From a plasmid: a stretch of DNA of 64,000 nucleotides. Where the stretch lies: sequence record NZ_CP072388.1. One strand, 5' to 3'. The stretch's first letter is position 1. Every line of letters begins with the position of its first letter. The notes under the pieces are model-generated. The model was not told where the DNA came from. It saw only the letters and a program-made list of their open reading frames with translations, and did no database searches. Positions 34,812 to 50,926 of this stretch are shown piece after piece. A program made the position numbers and the translations under genes.

Positions 34812-36497
34812 ATGCACACCGCACCACGAGACCTGAAGCAACCAGCCGCCCCCGCGCCCGCAGCCCTGCGCATCACACCGCTGGGTGGCGTGGGGGAGAT
34901 CGGCCGGAACATGACGGTCTTCGAGCTCGACGGGCGCCTGCTCGTCATCGACTGCGGCGTGCTGTTCCCCGAGGAGCACCAGCCCGGCATCGACGTCATC
35001 CTCCCCGACTTCGCGAGCCTGGAGAACCGGCTCGACGACATCGAGGCCATCGTGCTCACCCACGGGCACGAGGACCACATCGGCGGGGTGCCCTACCTCC
35101 TGCGCCAGCGCCCGGACATCCCCGTCATCGGGTCCGAGCTGACGCTCGCCTTCGTCGCGGCCAAGCTGACCGAGCACCGCATCGACCCCGTGCTCACCCG
35201 CGTCGAGGCGGGCGACCGGCACACCGCCGGCCCCTTCGCCCTCGAGTTCATCGCGGTCAACCACTCGATCCCCGACGGGCTCGCCGTCGCGATCCGCACA
35301 CCCGCCGGGCTCGTGCTCCACACCGGCGACTTCCGCATGGACCAGTTCCCGCTCGACGGGCGCCTGACCGACCTGCGCGCGTTCGGCCGGCTCGGCGACG
35401 AAGGCGTGGACCTGCTGCTCGTGGACTCCACCAACGCCGAGGTCCCCGGCTTCACGATCTCCGAGGCCGAGCTCACGCCGGCGATCGACCAGGTCTTCAC
35501 CACCACGCCCGGGCGCGTCATCGTGTCCAGCTTCGCCAGCCACGTCCACCGCATCCAGCAGGTCCTGAACGCCTCGCACGCCCACGGACGCAAGGTCGCG
35601 TTCGTCGGCCGGTCCATGGTGCGCAACATGCGCATCGCGCGCGAGCTCGGCTACCTCGACGTCCCGCGCGGGCTCGTCGTCGACTACACCAAGACCCGCG
35701 GCATGGCACCGGAGAAGGTCACGCTCGTGTGCACCGGGTCTCAGGGCGAACCCCTGGCCGCGCTGGCCCGCATGGCGAACGAGTCCCACGAGGTCCGCGT
35801 CAGCGAGGGCGACACCGTCCTGCTCGCCAGCTCCCTCATCCCCGGCAACGAGAACGCCATCTACGGCATCATCAACAAGCTCACCGACCTCGGCGCCAAC
35901 GTCGTCCACAAGGGCAACGCCCGCGTGCACGTCTCCGGCCACGCCAGCGCCGGCGAGCTCGTCTACTGCTACAACATCCTGCGCCCCCGCAACGTCATGC
36001 CCGTGCACGGCGAACCCAAGCACCTGCGCGCCAACGGCGCCCTCGCCGAACGCACCGGCGTCGACCCCGACCACGTCCTGATCACCCGCGACGGCGTCGC
36101 CGTCGACCTCCTCGACGGCGTCGCCCGCATCGCCGGGCAGGTCCAGGCCGACCTCGTCTACGTCGACGGGCAGACCATCGGCCATGCCACCGAGGACACC
36201 CTGGCGGAGCGCCGCCAGCTCGCGGCAGCGGGCGTCGTCACCGTCCTCGCGCTCCTGCAGCCCGGCACGACCGAGCTCGCCGAACCGCTCGAGTACCTGC
36301 ACCGCGGCTCGGTGCACAGCCAGGACAGCCTCGACAAGGCCACCCGCGCCGTGCGCAAGGCACTCTCCGACGCCGCACACCGTAACCAGACCTCCGGCGA
36401 AGAGCTCGAAGAGCTCATCGCCACCACGGTCGCACGCTCCCTCGGCCGCGACGCCCGACGCGACCCCGTCGTCATCGCCTACGCCCTCGACGCCTAG
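34812..36497 (+). CDS. rnj: Ribonuclease J (metallo-beta-lactamase / beta-CASP)
   Basis: VLTHGHEDHIGG motif, beta-CASP motifs, 561 aa. Confidence 0.9.
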   Translation: MHTAPRDLKQPAAPAPAALRITPLGGVGEIGRNMTVFELDGRLLVIDCGVLFPEEHQPGIDVILPDFASLENRLDDIEAIVLTHGHEDHIGGVPYLLRQRPDIPVIGSELTLAFVAAKLTEHRIDPVLTRVEAGDRHTAGPFALEFIAVNHSIPDGLAVAIRTPAGLVLHTGDFRMDQFPLDGRLTDLRAFGRLGDEGVDLLLVDSTNAEVPGFTISEAELTPAIDQVFTTTPGRVIVSSFASHVHRIQQVLNASHAHGRKVAFVGRSMVRNMRIARELGYLDVPRGLVVDYTKTRGMAPEKVTLVCTGSQGEPLAALARMANESHEVRVSEGDTVLLASSLIPGNENAIYGIINKLTDLGANVVHKGNARVHVSGHASAGELVYCYNILRPRNVMPVHGEPKHLRANGALAERTGVDPDHVLITRDGVAVDLLDGVARIAGQVQADLVYVDGQTIGHATEDTLAERRQLAAAGVVTVLALLQPGTTELAEPLEYLHRGSVHSQDSLDKATRAVRKALSDAAHRNQTSGEELEELIATTVARSLGRDARRDPVVIAYALDA

Positions 36498-36563
36498 ACG
36501 CAGACCCCCGCGACGAGCCGAGCGAACTCCCGACGGACCCTGCGCAGCTCGAGTTACAACCTC

Positions 36564-36935
36564 TCAGCCACCGGTGGTCTCCGTGAGCGAGGTTGCCAGC
36601 TGGCTGAGCGCGCCGGGGACCAGGGAGTAGTAGGCCCATCGGCCGCGTTGCTCGCGGTGGAGCAGGCCGGCGTCGACGAGGATCTTCAGGTGGTGGCTGA
36701 CGGTCGGCTGGGCGAGGCCGATCGGCTCGGTGAGGTCGCACACGCACGCCTCGCCGCCGTCGTGCGCGGCGACGATCGACAGCAGCTGCACGCGCGTCGG
36801 GTCGCCGAGCGCCTTGAAGATGCGGGCGAGGTCGCGCGCGGTCTCGGGGTCCGCGGCGTCGCGCACGAGCGGCGCGCAGCATCCGCCTGCCGCGGGAGCG
36901 TCCGGTGCCTCGAGGGTGAGCGCGGTGGTGGTCAT
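36564..36935 (-). CDS. arsR: ArsR/SmtB-family metalloregulator
   Basis: GDPTRVQLLSIV...CVCDL...LAQPTVSHHLKIL. Confidence 0.8.
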   Translation of the reverse strand: MTTTALTLEAPDAPAAGGCCAPLVRDAADPETARDLARIFKALGDPTRVQLLSIVAAHDGGEACVCDLTEPIGLAQPTVSHHLKILVDAGLLHREQRGRWAYYSLVPGALSQLATSLTETTGG

Positions 36936-36951
36936 GCCCTCATCTTGCCAT

Positions 36952-37009
36952 GTATCGAAGTTTGTAGATACGTTGGCGTCCTATTTGTTGATCGAAGTTC
37001 GTCGATGCG
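36952..37009. promoter_or_regulatory. Candidate ArsR operator repeats in the divergent arsR/FMO intergenic region (gtatcgaag ... atcgaagttcgtcgatgcg)
   Basis: Relatively AT-rich. Repeated TATCGA(A/T)G half-sites also occur at 49364 and 52025. Confidence 0.35.
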
Positions 37010-37020
37010 AGGAGAGTGCG

Positions 37021-38436
37021 ATGAGCGTTGAGCGTGCGGACCTGCCGGTCGTGGTGATCGGTGCGGGCCCGGTGGGGCTGGCCGCGGCGGCGCACCTGCT
37101 GGAGCGCGGTCTGGAGCCGCTGGTCCTCGAGGCGGGTGACGGCCCGGGTGCGGCGATCGCGTCGTGGGGTCATGTGCGGTTGTTCTCCCCGTGGCGGTAC
37201 GACGTCGACGCCGCAGCCCGGCGCCTGCTGGACCCGACGGGGTGGGTCGAGCCGGACCCCGACACCCTGCCGACCGGTGGGGAGCTCGTCGGGCGCTACC
37301 TGGTCCCGCTCGCCGCGACGCCGCAGATCTCCGCGCGCCTGCGCACCGGGACGCGGGTCCTGGCGGTCGCGCGCGACGGCGCGGACAAGACGCGTTCCCT
37401 CGGGCGCGAGCGGCAGGGCTACCGGGTCCGCACCGTCGGCCCGGACGGGCAGGTTCAGGACGTGCTGGCGCGCGCGGTGATCGACGCGTCAGGCACGTTC
37501 TCGACGTCGAACCCGCTGGGTGTCTCCGGTCTCCCGGCGGCGGGCGAGACGGGGGCCGCAGGGTATGTCACCGGACCGCTTCCGGACGTCCTCGGGTCGC
37601 AGCGCGACCGGTTCGCCGGCCGGGACACGCTCGTCGTCGGGATGGGGCACTCCGCGGCGAACACGCTGCTGGCCCTCGTCGAGCTCTCCGAGGCCGAGCC
37701 GGGCACCACGATCACCTGGGCGATCCGCGGCGGGTCCGCGCGGCGCCTGTTCGGCGGCGGCTCCGACGACGAGCTTCCCGCCCGCGGGCTGCTCGGCACG
37801 CGCCTGCGGGCCGCCGTGGAGGCTGGGCGCCTGACCCTGCTCACCCGGGTCTCGATCGAGCGCCTCGTCCCGGGCGGGGACACCGTGCAGGTGCTGGGGA
37901 CCGCCCGTGACGGGGCGCTGAACCTCGACGTCCACCAGATCGTCAACGCGACCGGGTTCCGCCCGGACCTCGACATGCTGCGCGAGGTGCGCCTGGACCT
38001 GGACCCGGTCGTGGAGGCGCCCACGGCGCTGGCCCCGCTCATCGACCCGAACCAGCACTCGTGCGGCACGGTGCCCCCGCACGGGGAGCAGGTGCTGTCC
38101 CACCCGGACGACGGGTTCTACCTCGCGGGCATGAAGTCCTACGGCCGCGCGCCGACGTTCCTGCTCGCCACGGGGTATGAGCAGGTGCGCTCGATCGCCG
38201 CAGCGCTGGCCGGGGACCGGACCGCGGCCGACGCGGTCGAGCTGAACCTGCCCGCGACCGGCGTCTGCTCGACCGATCTGGCCCTGGAGGCCGACGGCGC
38301 GAGCGCGGGCGGGTCGTGCTGCGGAACCGCGCCGGCCGAGCCGCAGCTGGTCACCCTCGGTGTCGGGGCGCCGGCCGGTGTCGGGTTCGCGACCGGCGTC
38401 GTGCACGGCCGGTCGGGCGACGGCCAGGACGCGTGA
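37021..38436 (+). CDS. FAD/NAD(P)-binding flavin monooxygenase (ArsO-like, tentative)
   Basis: VVIGAGPVGLAAAAHLLERG Rossmann motif, second GMGHSAANTL motif. Divergent from arsR. Confidence 0.7.
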   Translation: MSVERADLPVVVIGAGPVGLAAAAHLLERGLEPLVLEAGDGPGAAIASWGHVRLFSPWRYDVDAAARRLLDPTGWVEPDPDTLPTGGELVGRYLVPLAATPQISARLRTGTRVLAVARDGADKTRSLGRERQGYRVRTVGPDGQVQDVLARAVIDASGTFSTSNPLGVSGLPAAGETGAAGYVTGPLPDVLGSQRDRFAGRDTLVVGMGHSAANTLLALVELSEAEPGTTITWAIRGGSARRLFGGGSDDELPARGLLGTRLRAAVEAGRLTLLTRVSIERLVPGGDTVQVLGTARDGALNLDVHQIVNATGFRPDLDMLREVRLDLDPVVEAPTALAPLIDPNQHSCGTVPPHGEQVLSHPDDGFYLAGMKSYGRAPTFLLATGYEQVRSIAAALAGDRTAADAVELNLPATGVCSTDLALEADGASAGGSCCGTAPAEPQLVTLGVGAPAGVGFATGVVHGRSGDGQDA

Positions 38437-38939
38437 GTCTGACCCTGCGGATCGCGACCCCCGCCGACATGGCGGGGGTCGCGCGCATCTACGACCACTA
38501 CGTGACGACGTCGACCGCGACGTTCGAGCTCACCCCACCGGGCGAGACCGTGTGGGCGGACAAGCTCGTGGCCCTGCAGGGTGCGGGCTGGCCGTTCCTG
38601 GTCGCCGACCTCGACGGCGCCGTGTCCGGGTTCGCCTACGTGGGCCCGTGGCGCCCGCGCCCGGCCTACGCCCACACGGTCGAGGACACGATCTACCTCG
38701 ACCTCGCAGCGACCGGGCGCGGGATCGGGACCCGGCTGCTCGACCAGGTGCTCACCGACGCCGCAGCGGCCGGCGCACGAGAGGTGATCGCGGTCATCGC
38801 CGACGGCGACACCGCCGCATCACTCGCCCTGCACCGTCGCGCCGGGTTCACCGACGCCGGGCGCCTGGAACGCGTGGGCCGCAAGTTCGACCGGTGGCTG
38901 GGCACGACCCTGCTGCAGAAGTCCCTGCCCCTCCCGTAA
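38433..38939 (+). CDS. GNAT N-acetyltransferase (phosphinothricin/arsinothricin acetyltransferase ArsN-like)
   Basis: GTG overlaps FMO stop (GTGA). RIATPADMAGVARIYDHYV...GIGTRLL acetyl-CoA motif. Confidence 0.65.
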   Translation: MSLTLRIATPADMAGVARIYDHYVTTSTATFELTPPGETVWADKLVALQGAGWPFLVADLDGAVSGFAYVGPWRPRPAYAHTVEDTIYLDLAATGRGIGTRLLDQVLTDAAAAGAREVIAVIADGDTAASLALHRRAGFTDAGRLERVGRKFDRWLGTTLLQKSLPLP

Positions 38940-39000
38940 CCGCCCTGCGGGCACGGCAAACATAGATCGTGCTCTATCTGTCATCCGGGCTTCCGACCTC

Positions 39001-39022
39001 GTTCACCACACGTTCACATAGA
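39001..39022 (+). promoter_or_regulatory. PHO box: two direct repeat units GTTCACCacac GTTCACAtag upstream of pstS
   Basis: Matches the actinobacterial PhoP direct-repeat-unit consensus G(G/T)TCAYY. Located 65-85 nt upstream of pstS. Confidence 0.5.
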
Positions 39023-39085
39023 CCGCGTTCTATCGATCGTGTTGGTGGATGCGGGCGGGCGAAGGTCCCGCCCCGACGAGACGGG

Positions 39086-40069
39086 ATGACTTACGTGTTC
39101 AGACTTCCGCAGCGCACCGCTGTCGTGATCGGCGCGACGGGGCTGGTGCTCACGCTCGCCGCGTGTGGTGGCCAGAGCCAGGGAGCGACCGGCGATGGCG
39201 AGACATCGGGTGGCGGGCTCAGCGGGGAGGTCGTCATCGACGGCTCCTCGACGGTCGAGCCGCTGAGCTCGGCGGCGGCCACGTTGTTCCGCGACGAGGA
39301 GCCGGGTATCAACGTCACGGTCGCCACGTCGGGCACCGGTGGCGGGTTCGAGCGGTTCTGCGCCGGGGAGACCGACATCTCCGACGCCTCGCGTCCGATC
39401 AAGGACGAGGAGATCGCGGCGTGCGAGGACAACGGTGTGGAATTCACCGAGATCGTCATCGCCAACGACGGCCTGTCGGTGGTGGTGAACCCGGAGAACG
39501 ACTGGCTGGAGTGCATCACGACCGAGCAGCTCGCGACCATCTGGGGCCCAGACTCCGAGGGCACGGTGACCTCCTGGAGCCAGGTCGACCCGGAGTTCCC
39601 GGACGAGGCGCTCGCGCTGTACGGGGCGGGCACGGACTCGGGCACGTTCGACTACTTCACCGAGGCGATCAACGGCGAGGAGGGCGCGATCCGCACGGAC
39701 TACACCCCGTCGGAGGACGACAACCTCACGGTGCAGGGCGTCTCTGGCGCGGTCGGCGCGATGGGGTTCTTCGGCCTGAGCTACGCCGAGGAGAACGCCG
39801 ACTCGATCAAGCTCCTCGCCGTGGACAACGGTGACGGGTGCGTCGTCCCGTCCAAGGAGACGGTGCAGGACGGCACGTACTCGCCGCTGGGCCGCCCGCT
39901 GTTCATCTACGTCAACAACGCGAAGTACGCCGAGAACGAGGCGCTGCGTTCGTTCGTCGACTTCTACCTCGCCAACGAGGAGGAGATCGCCGCGGACGCG
40001 CTGTTCATCGACCTGACGGACGAGCAGCAGCAGACCGCGGCGGACGAGCTCGCGAGCCTGGTCGGCTGA
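39086..40069 (+). CDS. pstS: Phosphate ABC transporter substrate-binding lipoprotein
   Basis: Lipobox LAAC. GSSTVEPL...TSGTGGGF...DISDASRPIK. Confidence 0.85.
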   Translation: MTYVFRLPQRTAVVIGATGLVLTLAACGGQSQGATGDGETSGGGLSGEVVIDGSSTVEPLSSAAATLFRDEEPGINVTVATSGTGGGFERFCAGETDISDASRPIKDEEIAACEDNGVEFTEIVIANDGLSVVVNPENDWLECITTEQLATIWGPDSEGTVTSWSQVDPEFPDEALALYGAGTDSGTFDYFTEAINGEEGAIRTDYTPSEDDNLTVQGVSGAVGAMGFFGLSYAEENADSIKLLAVDNGDGCVVPSKETVQDGTYSPLGRPLFIYVNNAKYAENEALRSFVDFYLANEEEIAADALFIDLTDEQQQTAADELASLVG

Positions 40070-40080
40070 CCGGCGCCTCG

Positions 40081-41055
40081 ATGAGCACCCCTCGTTCCAC
40101 GGTGGCCGGTCCGGTGCGTGCGCCGGGCCGGCCACCGGCCCTGACCGAGCACGGCCCGGCCATCACCCGCCGGCGCGCGCGCCGCGGTGAGGCGCTGGTG
40201 CGCCTCCTGCTGCGCCTGGCGGCCTGGTTGTCGATCCTGATCACGGTCGGCATCGTGATCTCGCTGCTGACACCCGCACTGCAGTTCTTCGCCGAGGTCT
40301 CCGTCGTGGAGTTCCTCACCGGGACTCGCTGGGCGCCGCAGTTCGCCGACCCGACCTTCGGGGTCCTGCCCCTGGTCACGGCCACGGCCTGGACGACGCT
40401 GATCGCGCTGGCGGTGGCGGTCCCGTTCGGGCTGGGCGCGGCGATCTACCTTGCCGAGTACGCGCGCCCCCGCGCCCGCAAGATCCTCAAGCCGATCCTC
40501 GAGCTGCTGGCCGGCGTGCCGACCGTGGTGTTCGGCTTCTTCGCCCTGTCGTTCGTCGCCCCGACGGTGCTGCGGGACTGGCTGAGCATCGAGGTCGGCA
40601 CGTTCTCGATCCTGGCCGCCGGGCTGGTCATGGGCGTGATGATCATCCCGACCGTCGCCTCCCTGTCCGAGGACGCCATGTCCGCGGTGCCCGCCGCACT
40701 GCGCCAGGGCTCGGCCGCGCTGGGCGCCAACCGGATGCAGACCTCGCTGCGCGTGGTCTTCCCCGCGGCGCTGTCCGGGATCGTCGCCGCGGTGGTGCTC
40801 GGCATCTCCCGTGCGATCGGGGAGACGATGATTGTCGCGATCGCTGCCGGCGCCCGGCCTCAGATGGTCACCGACCCGACCATGGAGGGCGCCACCATGA
40901 CCGGGTTCATCGCCCGCATGGCCCTGGGCGACGCCCGGGTCGGGTCGCTGGAGTACAACACCCTCTTCGCCGTGGGCCTGCTGCTGTTCGCCCTGACCCT
41001 CGTGGTCAACGCGATCAGCATCCAGCTCGTGCGCCGCTTCCGCCAGGAGTACTGA
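40081..41055 (+). CDS. pstC: Phosphate ABC transporter permease
   Basis: Six TM helices, ABC permease EAA-like loop. Confidence 0.85.
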   Translation: MSTPRSTVAGPVRAPGRPPALTEHGPAITRRRARRGEALVRLLLRLAAWLSILITVGIVISLLTPALQFFAEVSVVEFLTGTRWAPQFADPTFGVLPLVTATAWTTLIALAVAVPFGLGAAIYLAEYARPRARKILKPILELLAGVPTVVFGFFALSFVAPTVLRDWLSIEVGTFSILAAGLVMGVMIIPTVASLSEDAMSAVPAALRQGSAALGANRMQTSLRVVFPAALSGIVAAVVLGISRAIGETMIVAIAAGARPQMVTDPTMEGATMTGFIARMALGDARVGSLEYNTLFAVGLLLFALTLVVNAISIQLVRRFRQEY

Positions 41056-41963
41056 TGGCCCTGCACACCCCCGCCGTGGCGACCCAGCAAGCTCGCCTGG
41101 CCACCGGTAACCGGTCCAAGGAACGCACCCCGACCTCGGTGCTCTTCCTGGCCCTGCTGTGGATCTCGCTGTTCGTCGCGTTCGCCACCCTCGTCGCGCT
41201 GATCGTCACGACGATCGCCCAGGGCGCCGACCGGCTCGACTCGCGCCTGTTCACCGAGTACCCGTCCTCGCGGCCCGAGGAGGCCGGGGCGCGCCCCGCG
41301 ATCCTGGGGTCGCTGTGGGTGATCGGCACCACCGCCGCCCTCGCGATCCCGCTCGGGGTCGCCGCGGCCGTGCACCTGGAGGAGTTCGCCGACCGGCGCC
41401 ACTGGTTCAACCGGTTCATCGAGCTCAACATCCAGAACCTGTCGGCCATCCCGTCGATCATCTACGGCATGCTCGCGATCGGGACCCTGGCCTTGATCGG
41501 CGTCGGGAACAAGAACATCGTGATCGGCGGCGCGCTCGCCCTGGCGCTGCTCATCCTGCCCGTCATCATCATCGCCACCCGTGAGGCGTTGCGCGCCGTC
41601 CCGCGCGAGCTGCGCCACGGGTCGCTCGCTCTAGGCGCGACCGAGCTGCAGACCACCTGGCGCATCACGTTGCCCGCCGCGGTCCCGGGCATCGCCACCG
41701 GCACGATCCTGGCCCTGTCCCGCGCGCTCGGCGAGGCCGCGCCGCTGCTGCTGCTGGGTGCCCTGGTGTTCATCTCCTTCGACCCCAACGGGCTGCTCTC
41801 GGGCTTCACCACCATGCCGATCCAGATCTATGGCTGGACCAACGCACCCCAGGCCGGGTTCCACGAGCTCGCGGCCGCGACCTCGATCCTGCTCGTGGGG
41901 ATCCTGCTGGCCATGAACGCGCTGGCCATCATCATCCGCAACCGCTACCAGCGCCGCTGGTGA
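41055..41963 (+). CDS. pstA: Phosphate ABC transporter permease
   Basis: ATG overlaps the pstC stop by 1 nt. Typical PstA topology. Confidence 0.85.
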
Positions 41964-41986
41964 GACCACCCGAGGACCACCCCACC

Positions 41987-42868
41987 ATGACCACCACCGG
42001 CACCTCCGCGAAGGCCACCATGTCCTCCAGCACCCAGATCTCCACTCGCCCCGCCCACAGCGAGCACCGCGAGATCCCTGCCGAGCCCAACCCGGTCCTG
42101 CAGTGCGAGGACGTCGACGTCTACTACGGCTCCTTCCGCGCCGTGCGCGACGTGTCCCTGGCGTTCGGGCACAACGAGATCACGGCCCTCATCGGCCCGT
42201 CCGGGTGCGGGAAGTCCACCATCCTGCGCTCCTTGAACCGGATGAACGACCTGGTCGAAGGCGCGCGCGTGACCGGGTCCGTACGGTACTGGGGCCAGGA
42301 CATGTATGGCGCCGGCGTGGACCCGATCGAGGTGCGCCGCCGCATCGGGATGGTCTTTCAAAAGCCCAACCCGTTCCCGAAGTCGATCTACGACAACATC
42401 GCCTACGGCCCGAGAGTCACGGGGATGAAGGTCGCGTCGATGGACGACCACGTCGAGCAGGCACTGACCCGCGCCGCCCTGTGGGACGAGGTCAAGGACA
42501 AGCTCAAGCAGTCCGCCTACGGCCTGTCCGGTGGGCAGCAGCAGCGCCTGTGCATCGCCCGCACGATCGCCGTCGAGCCCGACGTGATCCTCATGGACGA
42601 GCCGTGCGCGTCGCTCGACCCCATCGCGACCATGCGCATCGAGACCCTCATGACCGAGCTGCGCGACCTGTACACGATCGTCATCGTCACCCACAACATG
42701 CAGCAGGCGGCCCGCGTCGCCGACCGCACCGCGTTCTTCACCGCCGCCGTCGACGAGACCACCGGTGACCGCACGGGCGAGCTCGTCGAGTTCGACCACA
42801 CCGCGAAGATCTTCGAGAACCCGGCCGACCAGCGCACCGAGGACTACATCACCGGACGCTTCGGCTGA
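41987..42868 (+). CDS. pstB: Phosphate ABC transporter ATP-binding protein
   Basis: GPSGCGKST Walker [14 protein letters not shown] signature, VYYGSFRAV. Confidence 0.9.
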
Positions 42869-42888
42869 CCACCCACCAGGAGCCGACG

Positions 42889-43644
42889 ATGACCGTCACC
42901 CTTCCCCCGCGCGGTCCCAGCACCCAGCGCGAGGCCACCGCGCTCGGGCCCCAGACCGTGCGCGCCGTCCTCGTCGACCCCACGTTCGACCCTCGCGAAG
43001 GGCTCGTGACCGCGATGCGCGAGCAAGGCATCACGCTCGAGCCCGTGAGCGACCCGCTGCGCGGCCTCGCCCGCGCCTCGCTCGCACACACCCGCGCCGT
43101 CGTGGTCAGCGCAGCGGTGGCCGACCCGATGCTCAGCGCCTTCGTCGCCGTGGTGCGCGACGAGCTCGACCTGCCCGTCCTGCTCGCCCACCGGGCCGGC
43201 GACGCCGACCGGCTCGGCGGCGCGGTGCTCGCCGGGGCCCGGCCCGTCGTCGACCAGCCCTACCAGCCCGCGCGCATGGCCGCGACCCTGCTCGGCCTCG
43301 CCGGGAACCAGGAACCAGGGATCGTGCGCGTCGGATCGCTCGAGCTCGACCCGGACGCCTACGACGCACGCCTGCACGGACGCGGCATCGACCTGAGCAC
43401 GCTGGAGTTCGAGGTCCTGCACGAGCTGGCGACCCACCCCGACCACGTGATCCCGCGCGAGCGGTTCACCCACCGCTACTGGCCGCGTTCACCCGACCCG
43501 GACGGAACCCTGGCCGCGGTCATCTCCCGCCTGCGCCGCAAGCTCGACGCCCATCACCTCGCCGGCGCCATCCACACCGTGCGCGGGATCGGCTTTCGCC
43601 TGGAGAGCGCCGTCCTCGCCGCATACTCACACCCAAACCCATAG
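42889..43644 (+). CDS. Atypical OmpR/PhoB-type response-regulator-like protein
   Basis: C-terminal winged helix (LSTLEFEVLHELATHPDHVIPRERF...GIGFRLE). N-terminal receiver-like domain lacks a clear phospho-acceptor Asp. Occupies the usual phoU position. Confidence 0.55.
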   Translation: MTVTLPPRGPSTQREATALGPQTVRAVLVDPTFDPREGLVTAMREQGITLEPVSDPLRGLARASLAHTRAVVVSAAVADPMLSAFVAVVRDELDLPVLLAHRAGDADRLGGAVLAGARPVVDQPYQPARMAATLLGLAGNQEPGIVRVGSLELDPDAYDARLHGRGIDLSTLEFEVLHELATHPDHVIPRERFTHRYWPRSPDPDGTLAAVISRLRRKLDAHHLAGAIHTVRGIGFRLESAVLAAYSHPNP

Positions 43645-43665
43645 ACGTCGATCTATCATGATGGG

Positions 43666-44079
43666 GTGGCGAGCCGACTCCTCGACCGGGACGTGAGCGC
43701 GACCGTCGCCGTCGCGGCGTCGGCCGAGCAGACGTGGCGTGCGCTCCTGGTCGTCCTGGGGATCGACGCCGAGGTACCGGGTGTGCCGGCGGCCTACGGG
43801 GCCATGGCCGGGCGTGTGCGCGACGCTGTGCCGGGGGACGGCTTGGTGGTGCGTGGCCGTCTGGGCGCGCGCACGTACGAGTTCTCCGCCCATCTCGTCG
43901 CCCGCGGTGTGTGGTGCGACCTGACGGTGGACGCAGCCCCGGACGACCTTGTCGGGGCAGTAGAGGGCGGGCGCTGGCGGCACCACCTGGCCCGGCGTCG
44001 GGTCCGGCAGCTCGTGCGAGATCTGGTGACCGATGTCGCGCGCACGGCGGGTAGCGGCGCCGGTCCGGTCTCGCGCTGA
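43666..44079 (+). CDS. Possible SRPBCC/START-fold small protein
   Basis: Weak. Composition is coding-like with no diagnostic motif. Confidence 0.25.
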   Translation: MASRLLDRDVSATVAVAASAEQTWRALLVVLGIDAEVPGVPAAYGAMAGRVRDAVPGDGLVVRGRLGARTYEFSAHLVARGVWCDLTVDAAPDDLVGAVEGGRWRHHLARRRVRQLVRDLVTDVARTAGSGAGPVSR

Positions 44080-44093
44080 GAGGCTGCCCGGCT

Positions 44094-45005
44094 TCAGGGG
44101 GTGATCTCGCGTACGAGGTCGTGCACGCGCGCGGTGATGTCGTCGACGATGCGCACGACGTCCTGAAGTGGGCGACCGGAAGGGTCCTCGACGGTCCAGT
44201 CGACGTAGCGCCGGCCAGGGAAGACCGGGCAGGCGTCGCCGCAGCCCATGGTGACCACGACGCCTGAGGCGCGCACGACCTCGTCGGTGAGGGGGCGGGG
44301 AAACTCGGTCAGCGCGTCGAGGCCGCGTCGCGCGAGCTCGGTGCGCACGACGGGGTCGATCGAGGCGGCGGGCACCGACCCGGCAGTGCGCACGCGCACC
44401 TGGTCGCCGGCGATCGAGCGCAGCACCGCGGCGGCGATCTGGGACCTGCCGGCGTTGCGCACGCACACGAACAGCACGTCCTGGCGCGGCGCGAGGCCGT
44501 GCCGGTCGAGGGTGAGGGCGGCGAGCCGGTCGGCGGCGAAGCGCGCGGTGAGCGCGGGCAGGTGGCGGCGCACGGTGGCGCGGGCGGCGAGCAGGTCGTA
44601 GCTGTCGGTGACGAACCGGGCGACGGTCTCGGGCGCGAGGACGTCGGTGTAGGTGGCGCTCAGGTCGGCGGTGATCCGTCGCAGGAGGCGGTCGTGGTCC
44701 CCGGGTGGGACGTGCGCGGCGCCGGACCGGTCCGGCGCGCCGATCGCGGCGCCGCCGAATCGGGCCAGGGCGTCCGGGGTCGGGCGGTATCGCGCGTCGG
44801 GGCCGTGTCCGACGCGGACCAGGACACCGACGTCGCTCATGGCCTGCAGGTGCGCGCCGACGGCGTCGAGGGCGCCACCGGGTCCGGCCAGGTCTCGGGC
44901 GCGGGGCTGTCCACTCGGGTCGGTGATGATCAGGGCCAGGAGCCGCAACCTGTCGGGATCGGCCATCGTGGCGGCCTGGGCGGCGCGCAGGTCGTCCGGG
45001 CTCAT
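44094..45005 (-). CDS. ArsR-HTH / LMW-PTP arsenate reductase fusion protein (ArsRC)
   Basis: N-terminal LRLLALI wHTH. C-terminal VLFVCVRNAGRSQ...TMGCGDACP (ArsC/LMW-PTP). Confidence 0.75.
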   Translation of the reverse strand: MSPDDLRAAQAATMADPDRLRLLALIITDPSGQPRARDLAGPGGALDAVGAHLQAMSDVGVLVRVGHGPDARYRPTPDALARFGGAAIGAPDRSGAAHVPPGDHDRLLRRITADLSATYTDVLAPETVARFVTDSYDLLAARATVRRHLPALTARFAADRLAALTLDRHGLAPRQDVLFVCVRNAGRSQIAAAVLRSIAGDQVRVRTAGSVPAASIDPVVRTELARRGLDALTEFPRPLTDEVVRASGVVVTMGCGDACPVFPGRRYVDWTVEDPSGRPLQDVVRIVDDITARVHDLVREITP

Positions 45006-45024
45006 CGGGGCACGCCCCGCCCGG

Positions 45025-45381
45025 TCAGCGCAGCAGGTCCGCGATCGCGTGCAGACGGACGGGGACGATGGAGTACCAGACCTCGCGTCCCACGGGGTCG
45101 CGGGTGACGATGCCCGCCTCGGTCATCACCTTCAGGTGGTGGGACACGGTGGGCTGGCGCAGGCCGAGCGCGCGGGTCAGGTCCGCGACGCGGGCACGGG
45201 CATCGGCGCTGTGGTGGATCAGGCTCAGCAGCTGTAGGCGGGTGGGGTCGGAGACGACCCGCAGCAGCGTGGCGGTGTCCTCGGCCTGCTCGCGGCTCAG
45301 CGTCGTGCGCAGGGCGGGCCCCGGCGCGCGTTCGGCCCGCCCCTGCAGGGGCGGGGACGACTCGCTTGCCGGGGCGCTCAC
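45025..45381 (-). CDS. arsR: ArsR-family regulator
   Basis: LLRVVSDPTRLQLLSLI...LGLRQPTVSHHLKVM. Confidence 0.8.
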   Translation of the reverse strand: MSAPASESSPPLQGRAERAPGPALRTTLSREQAEDTATLLRVVSDPTRLQLLSLIHHSADARARVADLTRALGLRQPTVSHHLKVMTEAGIVTRDPVGREVWYSIVPVRLHAIADLLR

Positions 45382-45403
45382 CCATCGAGGATAGCCGTCC
45401 GCG

Positions 45404-45844
45404 TCAGGCGGCCGGGGTGGGCGCGACCGGCGTGACGCCGAGCTCGCCCAGCAGGGTCAAGACACGGCCGCGGATCTCGTCGCGAATGGGGCGCACAGAC
45501 TCGATGCCCTGCCCTGCCGGGTCGGCGAGCTCCCAGTCCTCGTAGCGCTTGCCGGGGAAGATCGGGCAGGCGTCGCCGCAGCCCATGGTGATGACGACGT
45601 CGGACGCCTGGACGGCCTCGGTGGTGAGGACCTTGGGCTGCTCGGCGCGGATGTCGATGCCCTCTTCGAGCATGGCCTCGACGGCGACGGGGTTGATCTG
45701 GTCCGCCGGGGCCGAGCCGGCGGAGCGGACCTCGACGGCGCCGCCGGACAGTGCGCGAAGGTAGCCGGCGGCCATCTGGGATCGGCCGGCGTTGTGGACG
45801 CAGACGAACAGGGCTGACGGCTTCGCGGTGGTGGTGTCGGTCAT
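45404..45844 (-). CDS. arsC: Arsenate reductase, LMW-PTP type
   Basis: ALFVCVHNAGRSQMA...ITMGCGDACP. RBS aggaga. Confidence 0.85.
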   Translation of the reverse strand: MTDTTTAKPSALFVCVHNAGRSQMAAGYLRALSGGAVEVRSAGSAPADQINPVAVEAMLEEGIDIRAEQPKVLTTEAVQASDVVITMGCGDACPIFPGKRYEDWELADPAGQGIESVRPIRDEIRGRVLTLLGELGVTPVAPTPAA

Positions 45845-45870
45845 GGCGTTCTCCTGGTTGCTGGTGGATC

Positions 45871-46881
45871 TCAGGCGATGGTCAGGGTCAGGTCGGGCAG
45901 CAGGTCGGCGAGCAGGCCCCGTACTCGCTCGTCGAGGTCGTCGCGGATCGCGGCGACCCCTGCGGGGGAGGCCAGGGCGGGGTCGCCGACGAGCCAGTCC
46001 TCGTACCTCTTGCCGGGCAGCACGGGGCAGACGTCGCCGCAGCCCATGGTGATGACGACATCGGCGGCGCGGACGGCGTCGTCGGTCAGGGGCTTGGGGA
46101 AGGCTTCGTCGTCGTCGGTGCCGAGCTCGGTCAGGGCCTCGAGCACCCCGTCGTGGATGTCGGCGGCAGGCGTGGACCCGGCGGAGCGGACCACGACGCG
46201 GTTCCCGGCGTAGTGCTGCAGCAGGGCGGCGGCGAGCTGGGAGCGTCCGGCGTTGGCGACGCAGACGAACAGCACTTGCGGTCGGGCGTCGCCGGAGCGG
46301 GTGAGGTCGGCCAGTCTCTGGCGGGCGAACCGTGCGGTGAGCGGCACCAGGTGGGCCGAGACCTTCGCCGAGCGGGCCAGGTCGGTGTAGGACTCGCGGA
46401 CCACGCGTTGCACGACGTCGAACCGGACGTCGGGAAACGCTCCGGCGAGGTCCTCGGCGAGGTGGTCGAGCGCCGGGTCGACGTCGTCCAGCCCCGCCAG
46501 GACGGCCGCACCGTGTGCAGAGCCCAGCGCGGCCGGGGCGAACGAGTCGAGCAGCGTCGTCACCGCGGCCTTGTAACCGCCGGTGATGCGGTACCAGACC
46601 CAGGTGCCGCGCCGTTCGGAGGTCAGCACGCCGACGTCGCGCAGCACCTTGAGGTGGTGCGACACGGTGGGCTGTGACACGTCGGTGAGGGCGGCGAGGT
46701 CGCACACGCACGCCTCCCCGGCGGGTGCGGTCGCGATGAAGGACAGCATCCGTAGCCGCAGCGGCTCGGCGAGGGCCTTGAGCGTGGTGGCGACGGCGCC
46801 GGCGACCTCGGTGCCGATCGCGTGGGACTCGATCTGCGGGGCGCAGTCCGGGTCCGTGACAGTCAAGGGTGTGGTGGTCAT
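45871..46881 (-). CDS. ArsR-HTH / unknown middle domain / LMW-PTP arsenate reductase fusion (ArsRC, second copy)
   Basis: CVCDL...PTVSHHLKVL wHTH. ~100 aa linker domain. VLFVCVANAGRSQ...TMGCGDVCP. Confidence 0.75.
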   Translation of the reverse strand: MTTTPLTVTDPDCAPQIESHAIGTEVAGAVATTLKALAEPLRLRMLSFIATAPAGEACVCDLAALTDVSQPTVSHHLKVLRDVGVLTSERRGTWVWYRITGGYKAAVTTLLDSFAPAALGSAHGAAVLAGLDDVDPALDHLAEDLAGAFPDVRFDVVQRVVRESYTDLARSAKVSAHLVPLTARFARQRLADLTRSGDARPQVLFVCVANAGRSQLAAALLQHYAGNRVVVRSAGSTPAADIHDGVLEALTELGTDDDEAFPKPLTDDAVRAADVVITMGCGDVCPVLPGKRYEDWLVGDPALASPAGVAAIRDDLDERVRGLLADLLPDLTLTIA

Positions 46882-47984
46882 GACCTCACCTCTTCCAGCT
46901 CGGGTGTTCGAGTCGTGGGGGCGTAGGGGTCGACGGCGAACCAGCGGCGCGCGAGCCACAGGGAGACGTAGACGAGGCCGACGAGGACGGGGACCTCGAT
47001 GAGCGGGCCGACGACGCCGGCCAGGGCCTGACCTGACGTGGCGCCGAACGTGCCGATGGCGACGGCGATCGCGAGCTCGAAGTTGTTGCCCGCAGCGGTG
47101 AAGGCGAGCGTCGTGGAGCGTGCGTAACCGAGCGCGAGCATCTTGCCGACGACGATGCCGATGCCCCACATGGCGGCGAAGTACACCAGCAGCGGCAGCG
47201 CGATGCGGGCCACGTCGAGCGGGTGGGAGGCGACGGCCTCGCCCTGCAGGGCGAAGAGCAGCACGATCGTGAACAGCAGTCCGTACAGCGCCCACGGCCC
47301 GACCTTCGGCAGGAACCGGTCCTCGTACCAGGTGCGGCCCTTGGCGCGTTCGCCGACCAGGCGGGAGGCGAACCCGGCGGCCAGCGGGACACCGAGGAAG
47401 ACGAGGACGTTGAGCGCGATCTGCCCGACCGAGACGTCGAGGCCCTGGGTGTCCAGACCGAGCCATCCGGGCAGCACGGTGAGGTAGAAGTAGCCGAGCA
47501 GCGAGAACGCGACGACCTGGAAGGCGGAGTTGATCGCGACCAGCACCGTGGCCGCCTCCCGATCCCCGCACGCGAGGTCGTTCCAGATCACGACCATCGC
47601 GATGCAGCGGGCCAGGCCGACGATGATCAGCCCTGTGCGGTACTCGGGCAGGTCGGGCAGGAAGGCCCAGGCAAGGGCGAACATCAGCGCGGGACCGACC
47701 AGCCAGTTCAGTACCAGCGAGGAGACCAGGAGCCTCTTGTCGCCGGTGACCGCGCCGACGCGGTCGTAGCGGACCTTGGCCAGGACCGGGTACATCATGA
47801 CGAGCAGGCCGAGCGCGATCGGGACCGAGATCCCGCCGACCTCCATCGCCGTGAGCACCTCGGACAGGGCGGGGACGAACCGGCCCAGGACGAGACCGGC
47901 GACCATCGCGAGGCCGATCCACAGCGGCAGCCACCGGTCCAGCGTGGACAGGCGCCCGCGCGTGGCGGTCGTGGGGTCGCTCAC
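46878..47984 (-). CDS. acr3: Arsenite efflux transporter ACR3 family
   Basis: Ten TM helices. ACR3 signature stretches (LNWLVGP, ARCIAMV). GTG overlaps the trxA stop. Confidence 0.9.
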   Translation of the reverse strand: MSDPTTATRGRLSTLDRWLPLWIGLAMVAGLVLGRFVPALSEVLTAMEVGGISVPIALGLLVMMYPVLAKVRYDRVGAVTGDKRLLVSSLVLNWLVGPALMFALAWAFLPDLPEYRTGLIIVGLARCIAMVVIWNDLACGDREAATVLVAINSAFQVVAFSLLGYFYLTVLPGWLGLDTQGLDVSVGQIALNVLVFLGVPLAAGFASRLVGERAKGRTWYEDRFLPKVGPWALYGLLFTIVLLFALQGEAVASHPLDVARIALPLLVYFAAMWGIGIVVGKMLALGYARSTTLAFTAAGNNFELAIAVAIGTFGATSGQALAGVVGPLIEVPVLVGLVYVSLWLARRWFAVDPYAPTTRTPELEEVRS

Positions 47985-48304
47985 GCGAGGACCTCCTCGA
48001 TCTCGGCGACCAGCGCCTGCTTCGGGCGTGCGCCGACGACGGACTTCACCAGCTGGCCGTCGGAGTAGAAGTTCAGCGTCGGGATCGACACGACGCCCGC
48101 CGCCGCCACGGTCTTCGGGTTGGCGTCGGCGTCGAGCTTGGCGATCGTGAGCCTGCCCTCGTACTCCTGCGCGAGCTCGGCCAGGATCGGGGCGACCTGG
48201 CGGCACGGGCCGCACCACGTGGCCCAGATATCCACCAGCACAGGCACTTCGGAGGCCAGGACCACCTCGTCGAAGGTGTCGTCGGTGACGGTCACGGTGC
48301 TCAT
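47981..48304 (-). CDS. trxA: Thioredoxin
   Basis: WATWCGPC active site, 107 aa. Confidence 0.9.
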
Positions 48305-49323
48305 CGGATCTCCTCCAGCGCCAGGGGCAGCTCGTCGGGGTTCGGGGTCTCGGGCGTGCCGGCCAGGTTCGCAAGGCCGGCGGCGTCGGCGAGCTCGGTG
48401 AGGTAGGCCTGGGCGTCCAGGGCGGCGGAGGCGCCGGTCCCGGCGGCCGTGATGGCCTGCCGGTAGGTGTGGTCGACCACGTCGCCGGCGGCGAACACGC
48501 CCGACAGGTTGGTGCGGGTGGAGCGGCCCTGGACCAGGATGTAACCGTCGTCGTCGAGGTCGACCTGGCCCTTGACCAGGTCGGTGCGCGGCTCGTGGCC
48601 GACGGCGACGAACAGGCCCGTCGCGGGCAGCTCGCGCTCGGCGCCGGTCACGGTGTCGCGCAGCGTCAGGCCCTCGACCTTGTTCTCTCCGCCGATCGCG
48701 GCGACCTCGCTGTTCCAGGCGAACTCGATCTTCGGGTCGTTCAGGGCGCGGTCGGCCATGATCTTCGACGCACGCAGCTCCCCACGGCGGTGCACGACGG
48801 TGACCTTGGACGCGAACCGGGTGAGGAACGTGGCCTCCTCCATCGCGGAGTCCCCGCCGCCGACGACCGCGATGTGCTGGTCGCGGAAGAAGAACCCGTC
48901 GCAGGTGCCGCACCAGGACACCCCGCGCCCGGACAGCCGCTCCTCCTCGGGCAGGCCGAGCTTGCGGTAGGCGGACCCGGTGGTCAGGATCACCGCCCGG
49001 GCCCGGTAGGTGTCGCCGCTGCCGGTGTGGAGCGTCTTGACCGGGCGGTCCAGCTCGAGGGACGTCACGTCGTCCCACACGATGCGCGCCCCGAACTTCT
49101 CGGCCTGGGCCCGCATGGCGTCCATGAGCTCAGGGCCTTGGATGCCGTCCGCGAACCCGGGGAAGTTCTCCACCTCGGTCGTGGTCATCAGCGCGCCACC
49201 GGCGGTGACCGAGCCGGCGACCACCACCGGCGCCAGGCCGGCACGGGCGGCGTAGATCGCCGCGGTGTACCCGGCGGGGCCCGACCCCACGATCACGATC
49301 TCCTGAACCTCTTGCATCGACAT
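48301..49323 (-). CDS. trxB: Thioredoxin-disulfide reductase
   Basis: [16 protein letters not shown] redox centre, GGGDSA NADPH motif. Confidence 0.9.
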
Positions 49324-49343
49324 GCCTCTATGTTGACACCGGT

Positions 49344-49386
49344 CGATGCAGCGCGCAAGGTGGATATCGATGAACGTCGATGCAAC
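49344..49386. promoter_or_regulatory. Candidate ArsR operator repeats (tcgatgca ... atatcgatgaacgtcgatgca) in the trxB/DUF2180 divergent region
   Basis: Shares the TATCGATG motif with 36952 and 52025. Confidence 0.35.
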
Positions 49387-49398
49387 AGGAAGTGGATC

Positions 49399-49656
49399 AT
49401 GAACTGTTACGAGCACGCGCAGGAAGGCCGCGAGACGGTCGCCGTGGGGGTCTGCCCGCGCTGTGGCGCCGCGGTCTGCGCCGAGCACGCGGGGGAGTGT
49501 CGGGTCGAGATCGTTCGGAGCAACGGTGTCGGGTCGCCGACCCTCGGGCAGCACCGGGTCGTGTGCTGCGACCGGTGCCGCGCCTCTGGAGCTTGTGCCG
49601 GCGTGTGGCGGGCGGGCGTCGACGGCGCGCGTGAGCCGGCTGGTCGCGGCGTGTAG
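49399..49656 (+). CDS. DUF2180-family zinc-ribbon protein (paralog 2)
   Basis: MNCYEHAQ...[16 protein letters not shown] aggaag. Confidence 0.5.
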
Positions 49657-49705
49657 CGCTCAGTTCACCGTGCTCGGAAGAAGCCCTGGTGGGTCGCCGG
49701 GGCGG

Positions 49706-50926
49706 TCATGCAGCGTTTGGGCGGTGCACCCCGGTCGACAGGGCGATGAGTGCCGCGAGGGCGGCGGACGCGGCAAGGACCGCGAACGTCGCCGGGTAGG
49801 AGCCGGTGGCGCCGGTGAACGCGGCGGCCGCCCAGGGCGCCAGTGCCATCGCGAGCGTGGTGGGGGCGTTGAGGATCCCGAACAAGACGCCGTACGAGCC
49901 CGATCCCCACCGGTCGCTGATCGCGGTGGACTGCAGCAGCGTGAATGCGCCGCGCGCCACGCCGAGGGCGACGGCGGCGGCGATGAGCGCGGTGGCCGGT
50001 CCGTCGAGCAGCCCGACGATGGCGATCGTCAGGGCCGAGGTGCCGAGGAGCGCGCTGGCGCGGACGGGTGGTGTGGTGCGCGCGGCGAGCGATCCGTACG
50101 CGATGCGCCCCAGGAGCTGACCCGCGCCGGACAGGCCGAGCGCCCACGCGGCCGCAGCCGCTGTCAGGCCGCGCCAGGTCAGCATCGGCACCAGATGGAT
50201 GGTGGCGGCGAACATCGCGAACGCGCCCAGCGCGGTGGCGCAGGTCAGGGCGAGGAACGCTCGAGAGCGCGCGATCGTTCGCCACCCGCCTCCGCCGTGT
50301 GCGTGCTGGGCGGTCTCGAGGGGCGGCCAGGGTGCGCGCAGGCCGATTGCGTGCGCGGGGATGGTCGTCAGGGCGAGCAGGACGGCCAGGAAGAGGTAGG
50401 TCTGGCGCCATCCCGCGTGCTGGACCAGGGCGGCGGTCAGGGGCGCGAAGATCGTGCTCGCGAGCCCTGCCACCAGGGTCAGCACGAGCAGGGCCCGGGT
50501 CCGCGCGGGCCCGTACCAGCGGGTGATCGCGGTGAACGCCGGGGCGTAGAGCACCATCGACTGGGCGACGCCGACCATGACCCAGGCGGCGAGGAACCAA
50601 CCCAGGGACGGGGCAAGCGCGACGGCGATCACGGCGACGCTCGCCAGGACGGACCCAGTGGTCATCACCGCCCGGGGACCGTGGTGATCGATGCGTCTGC
50701 CCACGAGCACGCCCGCGCCGGCTGCGACGACCAGGGCCGCGGAAAACGCGGCCGTCGCGCTGGCTGGCGACCAGCCGGTGTCGGCCGTGATGGCCGGCAA
50801 GGCGACCGGGAAGGAGTAGTACAGGACGCCCCACCCCACGACCTGGGTCAGGCACAAGGCCGCGAGGGTGCCGCGTGGGCCGGTGCGCAGACCGGCGTCG
50901 CCTCGGCCCCTCTGCGTGGTGGTCAC
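49706..50926 (-). CDS. MFS transporter (ars-associated, ArsK/ArsJ-like candidate)
   Basis: 12 TM helices, MFS. Embedded in the ars cluster. Confidence 0.7.
   Translation of the reverse strand: MTTTQRGRGDAGLRTGPRGTLAALCLTQVVGWGVLYYSFPVALPAITADTGWSPASATAAFSAALVVAAGAGVLVGRRIDHHGPRAVMTTGSVLASVAVIAVALAPSLGWFLAAWVMVGVAQSMVLYAPAFTAITRWYGPARTRALLVLTLVAGLASTIFAPLTAALVQHAGWRQTYLFLAVLLALTTIPAHAIGLRAPWPPLETAQHAHGGGGWRTIARSRAFLALTCATALGAFAMFAATIHLVPMLTWRGLTAAAAAWALGLSGAGQLLGRIAYGSLAARTTPPVRASALLGTSALTIAIVGLLDGPATALIAAAVALGVARGAFTLLQSTAISDRWGSGSYGVLFGILNAPTTLAMALAPWAAAAFTGATGSYPATFAVLAASAALAALIALSTGVHRPNAA

Follow-up and report, generated by a model that had tools for sequence, protein, structure and literature searches.

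Because phosphate transporters let arsenate into cells, the way in which bacteria under arsenic stress rewire phosphate uptake lies at the heart of resistance. In the closest described system, that of Agrobacterium tumefaciens 5A, ArsR1 represses an ars-linked pstS1/phoB1 locus regardless of phosphate, and pst1 operons are common in proteobacterial arsenic islands (PMC7965956, PMC3834237). OmpR-type regulators with an aspartate-less receiver (ALR) are also a recognised class, accounting for about 2% of REC-OmpR architectures (PMC4395418), and such pseudo-receiver proteins have a literature of their own (PMC4395418, PMC3960148, PMC12632262). A Rhodococcus study reported that arsenate did not induce a chromosomal pst operon clustered with mycothiol genes, which is a different locus (PMC6514093). 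Here we analyse 64,000 nucleotides of a plasmid, sequence record NZ_CP072388.1 (the whole stretch is henceforth the window; 70.8% G+C, with proteins 93-99% identical to Cellulosimicrobium proteins). The window carries a pstSCAB operon whose last gene encodes an OmpR/PhoB-type regulator and which is flanked, as a first-pass annotation of this DNA had recognised, by ars genes and by three palindromes of the form ATAGA-N6-TCTAT. That annotation suggested that the palindromes may be operators of the regulator. Our comparison of sequences does not support this assignment and indicates that the arsenic-island pstSCAB is probably controlled through the palindromes by ArsR-family repressors.

The three palindromes proved to be real, non-random regulatory sites. 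The window holds three exact copies of ATAGANNNNNNTCTAT, namely the distal and proximal pstS operators and 43641-43656 (Table 1), and none appeared in 100 dinucleotide-preserving shuffles of the same sequence. These ATAGA-N6-TCTAT sites represent the A-variant of a single motif, AT[A/C]GA-N6-TC[G/T]AT (ATMGA-N6-TCKAT), of which the window contains eight sites with at most one mismatch where 1.8 are expected. Arsenic-island promoter regions hold seven of the eight: two at arsR1 and the ArsO-like gene, two upstream of pstS, one before an open reading frame (ORF137) downstream of the regulator gene, and two in the divergent promoter of the trxB operon. The motif is present at every ars promoter of the island. 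Since hybrid sites exist, ATCGA...TCTAT over the trxB start codon and ATAGA...TCGAT at the distal pst site of Isoptericola, the A- and C-variants belong to one motif family. For background we kept 1.13 Mb of unrelated loci from a genome scan that was otherwise discarded: run with the full-length regulator alignment, its matches were driven by the generic winged helix-turn-helix (wHTH) and comprised 80 ordinary OmpR-family loci. Exact motif sites number two in this background versus three to five per ars island. A matrix of 31 sites (62 half-sites) has A in 60/62, T in 62/62, C in 38 or A in 22, G in 59/62 and A in 56/62, which gives the consensus c-AT[C/A]GA-[C/T]N4[G/A]-TC[G/T]AT-g with positions 1, 2, 4 and 5 near-invariant.

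The motif also marks ars promoters outside Cellulosimicrobium. Plasmid pPaSha1 of Pseudonocardia alni (L001) carries nine sites with at most one mismatch against 0.56 expected, and further sites occur at ars promoters of Isoptericola (L083), the Streptomyces plasmid pFRL5 (L091), Promicromonospora (L105) and Pimelobacter (L106). Several lie directly upstream of arsR genes or over their start (L083 12037, L092 3608, L096 2991, L106 6976), others at arsR and ars promoters in 6852-6917 of the Rathayibacter locus L088, and others again at the start of operons containing arsR2, one of the ArsR-family genes of the window (L105 5378; window 49316/49366); a motif just upstream of arsR is the classical signature of an autoregulated repressor. 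Two loci speak directly to the question of which protein the sites belong to. The Rathayibacter plasmid ars locus has six sites, at arsR/arsB, arsC and oxidoreductase promoters, and within the 14 kb examined it has an arsR gene and neither pst nor the OmpR/PhoB-type regulator. Conversely, a plasmid locus of Rhodococcus opacus (L002) has pstSCAB and an Asp-less regulator without ars genes, and there the palindrome is absent while the GTTCA repeat described below is kept. Both loci weaken the claim of the 42889-43644 product to the palindromes.

At pstS the sites are held in a fixed layout. The two operators stand exactly 56 bp apart, start to start, in six genera (Table 1), a spacing kept across four orders; the promoter regions of four of the genera align without gaps, and one or two positions vary in some of the six. 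Pseudonocardia keeps the same layout with ATCGA-type sites. The first-pass annotation had placed a PHO box over the proximal palindrome, and a repeat of that kind is indeed found there: GTTCACCACACGTTCAC at 39001-39017 is the sole exact GTTCAC-N5-GTTCAC in the window and overlaps the second palindrome. Direct repeats of two or three 11-nt units, each with GTTCA as its core, are the actinobacterial form of the PHO box, that of Streptomyces PhoR-PhoP. In all six genera the second unit of the GTTCA-N6-GTTCA repeat (units GTTCAnnnnnn GTTCAn) abuts or overlaps the proximal palindrome, and the repeat is kept at pstS in L001, L002, L083, L084, L086, L091, L105 and L106, compared with 16 exact matches in the 1.13 Mb of background. 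Three diverged Cellulosimicrobium loci have identical GTTCAC units and differ in the 5-nt spacer. On Streptomyces pFRL5 (L091 8885-8940), an ATAGG...TCTAT palindrome and an exact GTTCA-N6-GTTCA lie together between an LMWP/FAD-oxidoreductase operon and arsR; the combination of operator and PHO box is therefore not restricted to pstS. A GC-rich hairpin in the pstS leader, GGGCGGG-N7-CCCGCCC at 39051-39072, downstream of the proximal operator and ahead of the ribosome-binding site, recurs in Isoptericola (L083, ~6066-6088); we dropped it as an element because its folding energy does not stand out from that of shuffled sequence (z = -0.8).

The third palindrome lies at the other end of the operon. 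The TAG stop codon of the regulator gene is inside its left arm, its right arm shares bases with TATCAT, a sequence of the actinobacterial -10 form TANNNT, and the start codon of ORF137 follows TATCAT by 6-7 nt, as for a leaderless transcript, from which ORF137 is probably translated. The overlap with this -10-like element would place ORF137 in the same regulon as pst. The block ATAGACG(T/C)CGATCTATCATGA is perfectly kept in three Cellulosimicrobium loci with diverging flanks, and most indels in ORF137 across Cellulosimicrobium loci are in-frame. ORF137 falls into four clusters, all from Cellulosimicrobium wherever the source names the organism, and its modelled fold is of the SRPBCC type; SRPBCC genes are very often paired with ArsR regulators. 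An ATAGA-type site is also found at the convergent junction of the regulator gene and fusA in L097/98 and L105, where ORF137 is absent. The third site therefore predates ORF137, and the junction position of its counterparts in other genera suggests an additional role.

Turning to the regulator, we found both parts of its predicted architecture. Its C-terminus matches PF00486 (Trans_reg_C; 56.4 bits, residues 165-238), whereas Pfam Response_reg gave no match even at E<=10. In an AlphaFold model built on 12 sequences (pLDDT 85.9), a (beta-alpha)5 receiver fold, residues 24-139 with pLDDT about 90, is followed by a winged helix. Foldseek with the full length returned PrrA, MtrA, PhoP (E about 1e-13) and VanR along with the atypical regulators HP1043 (2hqr), GlnR and RitR, and the fold matches the DNA-binding domains of PhoB, PrrA and MtrA, in line with an OmpR/PhoB-type output domain. 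Alignment to E. coli PhoB bore out that the receiver-like domain lacks the canonical aspartate: the phospho-acceptor D53 is S74 in the window protein and S, A, N, H, G, T or C, never D, in 29 members; D10 is P31 (mostly P in the rest of the family); T83 is H101 (variable in the rest); and K105 is Q123 (mostly L in the rest, also R, Q and others, never K). HisKA and HATPase_c domains are absent from the main genes of the window (small open reading frames were not scanned exhaustively), and no histidine kinase gene is adjacent to regulator orthologs. The conservation of its alpha4-beta5 segment, AVLAGARP...PY, would fit a constitutive dimer. The N-domain has only 27 clusters (50% identity) among 1.84 billion representative proteins, and the regulator is a small, strongly diverged family of ALR OmpR-type proteins. 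The recognition helix differs between two clades that share the promoter layout, AAVISRLRRKL in one and TVHVRRIRSRL in the other. Searching 72,556 plasmids by tblastn with the N-domain of the window-clade regulator gave no match, though L001, L088 and L091 carry the motif, and the full regulator retrieved only generic response regulators from plasmids. In a metagenome search a 6-sequence N-domain alignment led to four loci; a 12-sequence alignment was too diverse to use.

By contrast with the helix of the regulator, that of the ArsR proteins is kept. QPTVSHHLK occurs in ArsR1, ArsR2 and fusB of the window and in ArsRs of L083, L088 and L091, and the ArsRs at motif-bearing loci have QPTVSHH(L/V)K. 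ArsR2 is free of cysteine, as are most of the roughly 100 clusters closest to it; a handful have a single one. The As(III)-coordinating cysteine triad or pair of the R773, AfArsR and CgArsR types is accordingly missing from ArsR2, while ArsR1 and fusB carry CVCDL. Cysteine-less ArsRs form a large actinobacterial subfamily in which RV[AV]DL stands for CVCDL and the helix RQPTVSHHLKVM is kept (window 45028-45381, L083 11673-12017, L096 2631-3002, L097 2336-2689, P0048-P0115). In the Isoptericola island, where the pst operators are fully kept, ArsR2 is the sole intact ArsR within 20 kb; at the Pseudonocardia and Streptomyces loci every local ArsR carries cysteines.

ArsR2 belongs to a conserved set of genes. 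In the window it is encoded in a seven-gene minus-strand operon, trxB-trxA-acr3-fusB-arsC-arsR2-fusA (44094-49317), in which fusA matches Pfam Phosphatase-like_N and LMWPc and, weakly over residues 12-81, ArsR_Rv2640c. At each close relative of the regulator, pstB is followed, sometimes with phoU in between, by the regulator gene, with fusA and ArsR2 convergent to it, and fusA always comes after a cysteine-less ArsR2. The triad of ArsR2, fusA and the ALR regulator is kept even where pst is absent or cut off (L099-L104); hence the triad, not pst, is the conserved core. In the metagenomic loci L099-L101 (8317-12033) and L093-L095, a Tn3-family transposon with merA, merB and merR truncates the regulator N-terminally (216 aa); ArsR2 and fusA remain, and pst and the palindromes are gone. 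In L102-L104 (7001-9033) the triad, with SQPTVSRHLKLM as the ArsR2 helix, stands beside an integrase; these loci lack a pst operon and any recognisable palindrome.

We read the palindromes as ArsR-family operators because the motif marks ars promoters, because it precedes arsR genes, and because the ArsR helix is kept while the ALR helix is not. If instead the Asp-less regulator bound ATAGA-N6-TCTAT as a head-to-head dimer and so controlled pst independently of phosphorylation, with the ArsRs confined to ATCGA-type sites, one could point to HP1043, a fold match of the regulator that binds an inverted repeat. Constitutive-dimer Asp-less OmpR proteins are known as a class (reviewed in PMC4395418), within the close clade no ATAGA-type pst operator occurs without the regulator, three lineages have the third site at the stop codon of the regulator gene, and ATAGA half-sites are enriched at pst promoters (window, L083, L091, L105, L106). 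Yet arsR, LMWP and Pit promoters carry ATAGA-type sites too (L001 11785; L091 8885, 11015), the hybrid sites unite both variants, the Pseudonocardia pst promoter has its layout filled with ATCGA-type sites, the recognition helix of the regulator changes between clades that share the motif, and the pst-less triad loci have the regulator and no palindrome. Furthermore, OmpR-family proteins usually bind direct repeats, and a direct repeat of that type, GTTCA, sits right beside the palindrome. We consider ownership by the regulator very unlikely.

Another version of ArsR control holds that the As(III)-sensing ArsRs with cysteines, ArsR1 and/or fusB, are the binders, that pst is simply a further As(III)-inducible ars unit, and that ArsR2, fusA and the ALR regulator are accessory or serve something else. 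ArsR1 and fusB share QPTVSHHLK and carry CVCDL, the Pseudonocardia and Streptomyces loci have the same pst promoter layout with cysteine-bearing ArsRs throughout, and the Agrobacterium precedent uses an As(III)-responsive ArsR1. Against this, Isoptericola has only the cysteine-less ArsR2 intact within 20 kb and yet keeps its operators, the proximal 16-mer being identical, and arsR2 genes have the motif directly upstream in several lineages; we regard the exclusive use of cysteine-bearing ArsRs as possible, though rather unlikely. That the palindromes are no protein sites at all but chance occurrences, remnants of small repeat elements or RNA hairpins can hardly be correct. Their arms are only 5 bp long, and a terminator would be no surprise at the third site, with convergent genes on either side; but no palindrome is expected by chance, as the shuffles showed, their position and the 56-bp spacing are kept in six genera while the flanks diverge, and a hairpin of 5-bp stem and 6-nt loop lacks the strength for termination. 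In addition, Rfam gave no match over 36000-50000, a terminator scan of both palindrome regions yielded no terminator-like site, and the sites share no sequence beyond the arms.

Several observations weigh against ArsR-family control as we propose it. ArsR2 has no cysteine and therefore cannot sense As(III) in the known way. At the triad loci that have lost pst (L099, L102-104) no palindrome can be recognised, not even upstream of arsR2. Occurrence of the motif with an ArsR apart from the regulator is seen for the ATCGA variant at L088, where the evidence covers only 14 kb of plasmid; for the ATAGA variant in the close clade, ArsR2 and the regulator are never found apart. A search for ArsR2 loci without the regulator, which would separate the two, found them always co-occurring in the close clade, and with ArsR2, fusA and the regulator always together the gene distribution there cannot tell which of them binds the ATAGA sites. 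As to the activator, the GTTCA repeat is kept across clades with differing regulator helices and so fits host PhoP at least as well as the ALR protein, and the DNA-binding domain of the latter is no nearer to PhoB/RegX3 than to WalR, GlnR or PrrA, which rules it out as a PhoB-specific paralogue. Finally, a scan of both palindrome regions for sigma-70-like promoters came up empty and no -10/-35 elements could be placed at the pstS promoter, so the operators are not positioned relative to the transcription start.

Under ArsR-family control, an ArsR dimer on each palindrome, the two pstS operators and the ORF137 operator, would keep the operon off. The most likely predicted binder is the co-travelling ArsR2, which has the same motif just upstream of its own gene or operon; ArsR1 or fusB, with cysteines and the helix QPTVSHHLK, may bind instead or as well. 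With the proximal operator and the PHO-box-like repeat overlapping, binding of the repressor and of the activator should be mutually exclusive: a repressor on that operator would block the repeat and shut out an OmpR-family activator, be it the PhoP/RegX3 of the host or the Asp-less regulator encoded by the operon. After release of the repressor, the Asp-less regulator would be co-produced with the transporter and, presumably needing no kinase, could sustain expression under plentiful phosphate; if it is the activator, a positive feedback would result. The predicted outcome is phosphate uptake through an arsenate-discriminating Pst route during arsenic stress. One could go further and imagine ArsR2, fusA and the Asp-less regulator as a thiol-free, kinase-free sensing circuit, in which the P-loop of fusA would detect arsenate or the arsenate/phosphate ratio and relieve ArsR2 repression by forming a heterodimer by way of the ArsR-like dimerisation fold that both share, and the regulator would act as a constitutive PhoP surrogate on the PHO box. 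This is an unlikely extension; if true, the cell would switch to a selective phosphate importer on As(V), not on As(III) or phosphate starvation.

The transporter itself was judged against curated NCBIfam cut-offs, which all four genes exceed, confirming the pstSCAB reading of the first-pass annotation. By family assignment it is a copy of the high-affinity phosphate importer, and family membership gives no phosphate/arsenate selectivity. A tblastn search of the window with an actinobacterial PhoU was empty, in agreement with the earlier remark that phoU is missing; actinobacterial pst operons are normally without phoU. The further idea that the regulator stands in place of phoU is not apt: three relatives (L092, L096, L106) have the order pstB-phoU-regulator and encode both, so the regulator is no PhoU substitute, and we ruled this role out.

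Around the operon, the ars/pst island was probably acquired horizontally. Mobile elements and metal-resistance genes are patched together across the window, among them a Mu-type transposase with TniB, a tRNA-Val, two resolvases, a MerA-like reductase, a P-type ATPase and an 848-aa integrase. In Isoptericola (L083 5826-5901) a tRNA-Thr(TGT), a typical integration site of genomic islands, lies about 70 bp upstream of the start of the pst/ArsR2 island. Divergent from trxB, and sharing its two palindromes, is a small Cys-rich open reading frame at 49399-49656 (+) of about 85 aa with the pattern CPRCG...C...CC..C; L084 has an 84-aa gene call in the corresponding place. A Mycobacterium lentiflavum plasmid (L090 1-3669) has two orphan pstS genes without pstCAB in an ars cluster beside ArsR-family genes, which is another form of phosphate-arsenic gene link.

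Table 1. Features of the ars/pst island and the paired pstS operators of related loci (window coordinates unless a locus is named)
Feature	Coordinates	Strand	Remarks
arsR1, ArsR/SmtB repressor	36567-36935	-	NCBIfam, Pfam HTH_5; N-terminal CC, CVCDL; helix QPTVSHHLKIL
Two ATCGA-type palindromes	36954-36969 (1 mismatch), 36991-37006 (exact)		arsR1/arsO divergent promoter region
ArsO-like flavin oxidoreductase	37021-38436 (start approximate)	+	Pfam Pyr_redox_3/DAO; L001 ortholog annotated ArsO family
ArsN-like GNAT acetyltransferase	38440-38939 (start approximate)	+	resist_ArsN1b 122.7 bits, below cut-off 210; Acetyltransf_1
Distal pstS operator ATAGATCGTGCTCTAT	38962-38977		exact match; site at same position in six genera
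PHO-box-like direct repeat GTTCACCACAC GTTCACATAGA (two 11-nt units)	39001-39022	+	overlaps proximal operator
Proximal pstS operator ATAGACCGCGTTCTAT	39018-39033		exact match; identical 16-mer in Isoptericola L083
pstS lipoprotein	39086-40069	+	TIGR02136 279 bits (cut-off 206.6); lipobox LAAC, lipoprotein signal peptide
pstC permease	~40081-41055	+	TIGR02138 263 bits (cut-off 196.45); start from ortholog, L084 gene call
pstA permease	41055-41963	+	TIGR00974 244 bits (cut-off 193.45)
pstB ATPase	~42020-42868	+	TIGR00972 385 bits (cut-off 343.2); start from ortholog
ALR-wHTH, aspartate-less-receiver OmpR/PhoB-type regulator, 251 aa	42889-43644	+	last gene of pst operon
Third operator ATAGACGTCGATCTAT	43641-43659		overlaps regulator stop codon and -10-like TATCAT (43654-43659)
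ORF137, genus-restricted SRPBCC/START-fold protein	43666-44079	+	model pLDDT 83; SRPBCC/AHSA1 fold matches
fusA	44094-45005	-	degenerate ArsR-like helix-turn-helix (HTH) + three-helix + LMWP (ArsC-like); convergent with pst operon
arsR2, cysteine-less ArsR family	45028-45381	-	RVADL replaces CVCDL; helix RQPTVSHHLKVM
LMWP-type arsenate reductase	45404-45844 (end approximate)	-	Pfam LMWPc; 146-aa ortholog in L084
fusB	45871-46881	-	intact ArsR HTH (CVCDL) + Phosphatase-like_N + LMWPc fusion
trxB, trxA, acr3 (thioredoxin reductase, thioredoxin, ACR3 arsenite carrier)	46878-49317	-	Pfam SBF, Pyr_redox_2; order as in L084, L086
Two palindromes	49316-49381		ATCGACATGCCTCTAT at 49316 over trxB start codon, ATCGATGAACGTCGAT at 49366; trxB/Cys-rich-ORF divergent promoter
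Mobile/metal-resistance features of window	2687-5346, 6496-6582, 6702-7334, 7710-9389, 12161-12802, 20779-23145, 52427-54973		
56-bp operator pair, Cellulosimicrobium (window)	38962 / 39018		
56-bp operator pair, Isoptericola L083	5974 / 6030		
56-bp operator pair, Pseudonocardia L001	5616 / 5672		
56-bp operator pair, Streptomyces L091	1576 / 1632		
56-bp operator pair, Promicromonospora L105	13022 / 12966		
56-bp operator pair, Pimelobacter L106	13666 / 13610		

Probable ArsR operators on an operon of an ars island are the ordinary part of these results, and the ArsR2-fusA-ALR triad and the rigid promoter are the interesting part. The locus is an actinobacterial counterpart of the proteobacterial ars-island pst, with a shared operator motif, a fixed pstS promoter, a regulator predicted not to accept a phosphoryl group and an ArsR with no cysteines through which As(III) could be bound. 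If our reading is true, it supplies a ready consensus for predicting actinobacterial ars regulons and a test case for interleaved repressor and activator sites, and it draws attention to two uncharacterised regulator families, the Cys-less ArsRs and the Asp-less OmpR-type proteins. A more general lesson is that a regulator encoded in an operon need not own the nearest palindrome.

How far, then, does the locus resemble systems already described? Like Agrobacterium pst1/phoB1, it is a second pstSCAB inside an arsenic island with its own PhoB-family regulator gene, it has at least two ArsR sites, here predicted, in the pstS promoter region, and we propose for it an ArsR repression that answers arsenic and not phosphate. 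The proteobacterial locus, however, has a canonical phosphorylatable PhoB1 and phoU, whereas here the regulator has no phospho-acceptor and phoU is usually absent; the actinobacterial module adds a co-travelling ArsR without cysteines and an ArsR-like/LMWP fusion, and its operator motif and rigid 56-bp layout, known here from sequence alone, are specific to Actinobacteria. Its palindromes resemble ArsR/SmtB operators in being short inverted repeats, one to three copies, in arsR-proximal promoters, some of the window type overlapping start codons or a -10-like element; unlike in those systems, the likely cognate ArsR2 is without every known metalloid-binding cysteine. We did not find the consensus c-AT[A/C]GA-[C/T]N4[G/A]-TC[G/T]AT-g in the literature searched, the Corynebacterium ArsR footprint (Ordonez 2008) lying outside the comparison, nor a description there of the ArsR2-fusA-ALR/pst module.

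The other two components have relatives of their own. Like HP1043/HsrA, ChxR and RitR, with GlnR as a related atypical case, the regulator combines a receiver fold and a wHTH domain, has its phospho-acceptor replaced and has no kinase gene nearby; unlike HP1043, ChxR and RitR, it forms a separate small family, too diverged for Pfam Response_reg and tied to the pst-ArsR2-fusA module. The GTTCA repeat follows the Streptomyces PHO box in having two or three 11-nt units immediately upstream of pstS, with units kept and spacers varying, and departs from it in the fusion of its second unit to an ArsR-type palindrome. ArsR-controlled pst operons in ars islands are thus already known in Proteobacteria, and the actinobacterial version is built from different parts. 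What is new here is that a cysteine-less ArsR and the ArsR-like/arsenate-reductase-like fusion always accompany the Asp-less regulator, even without pst.

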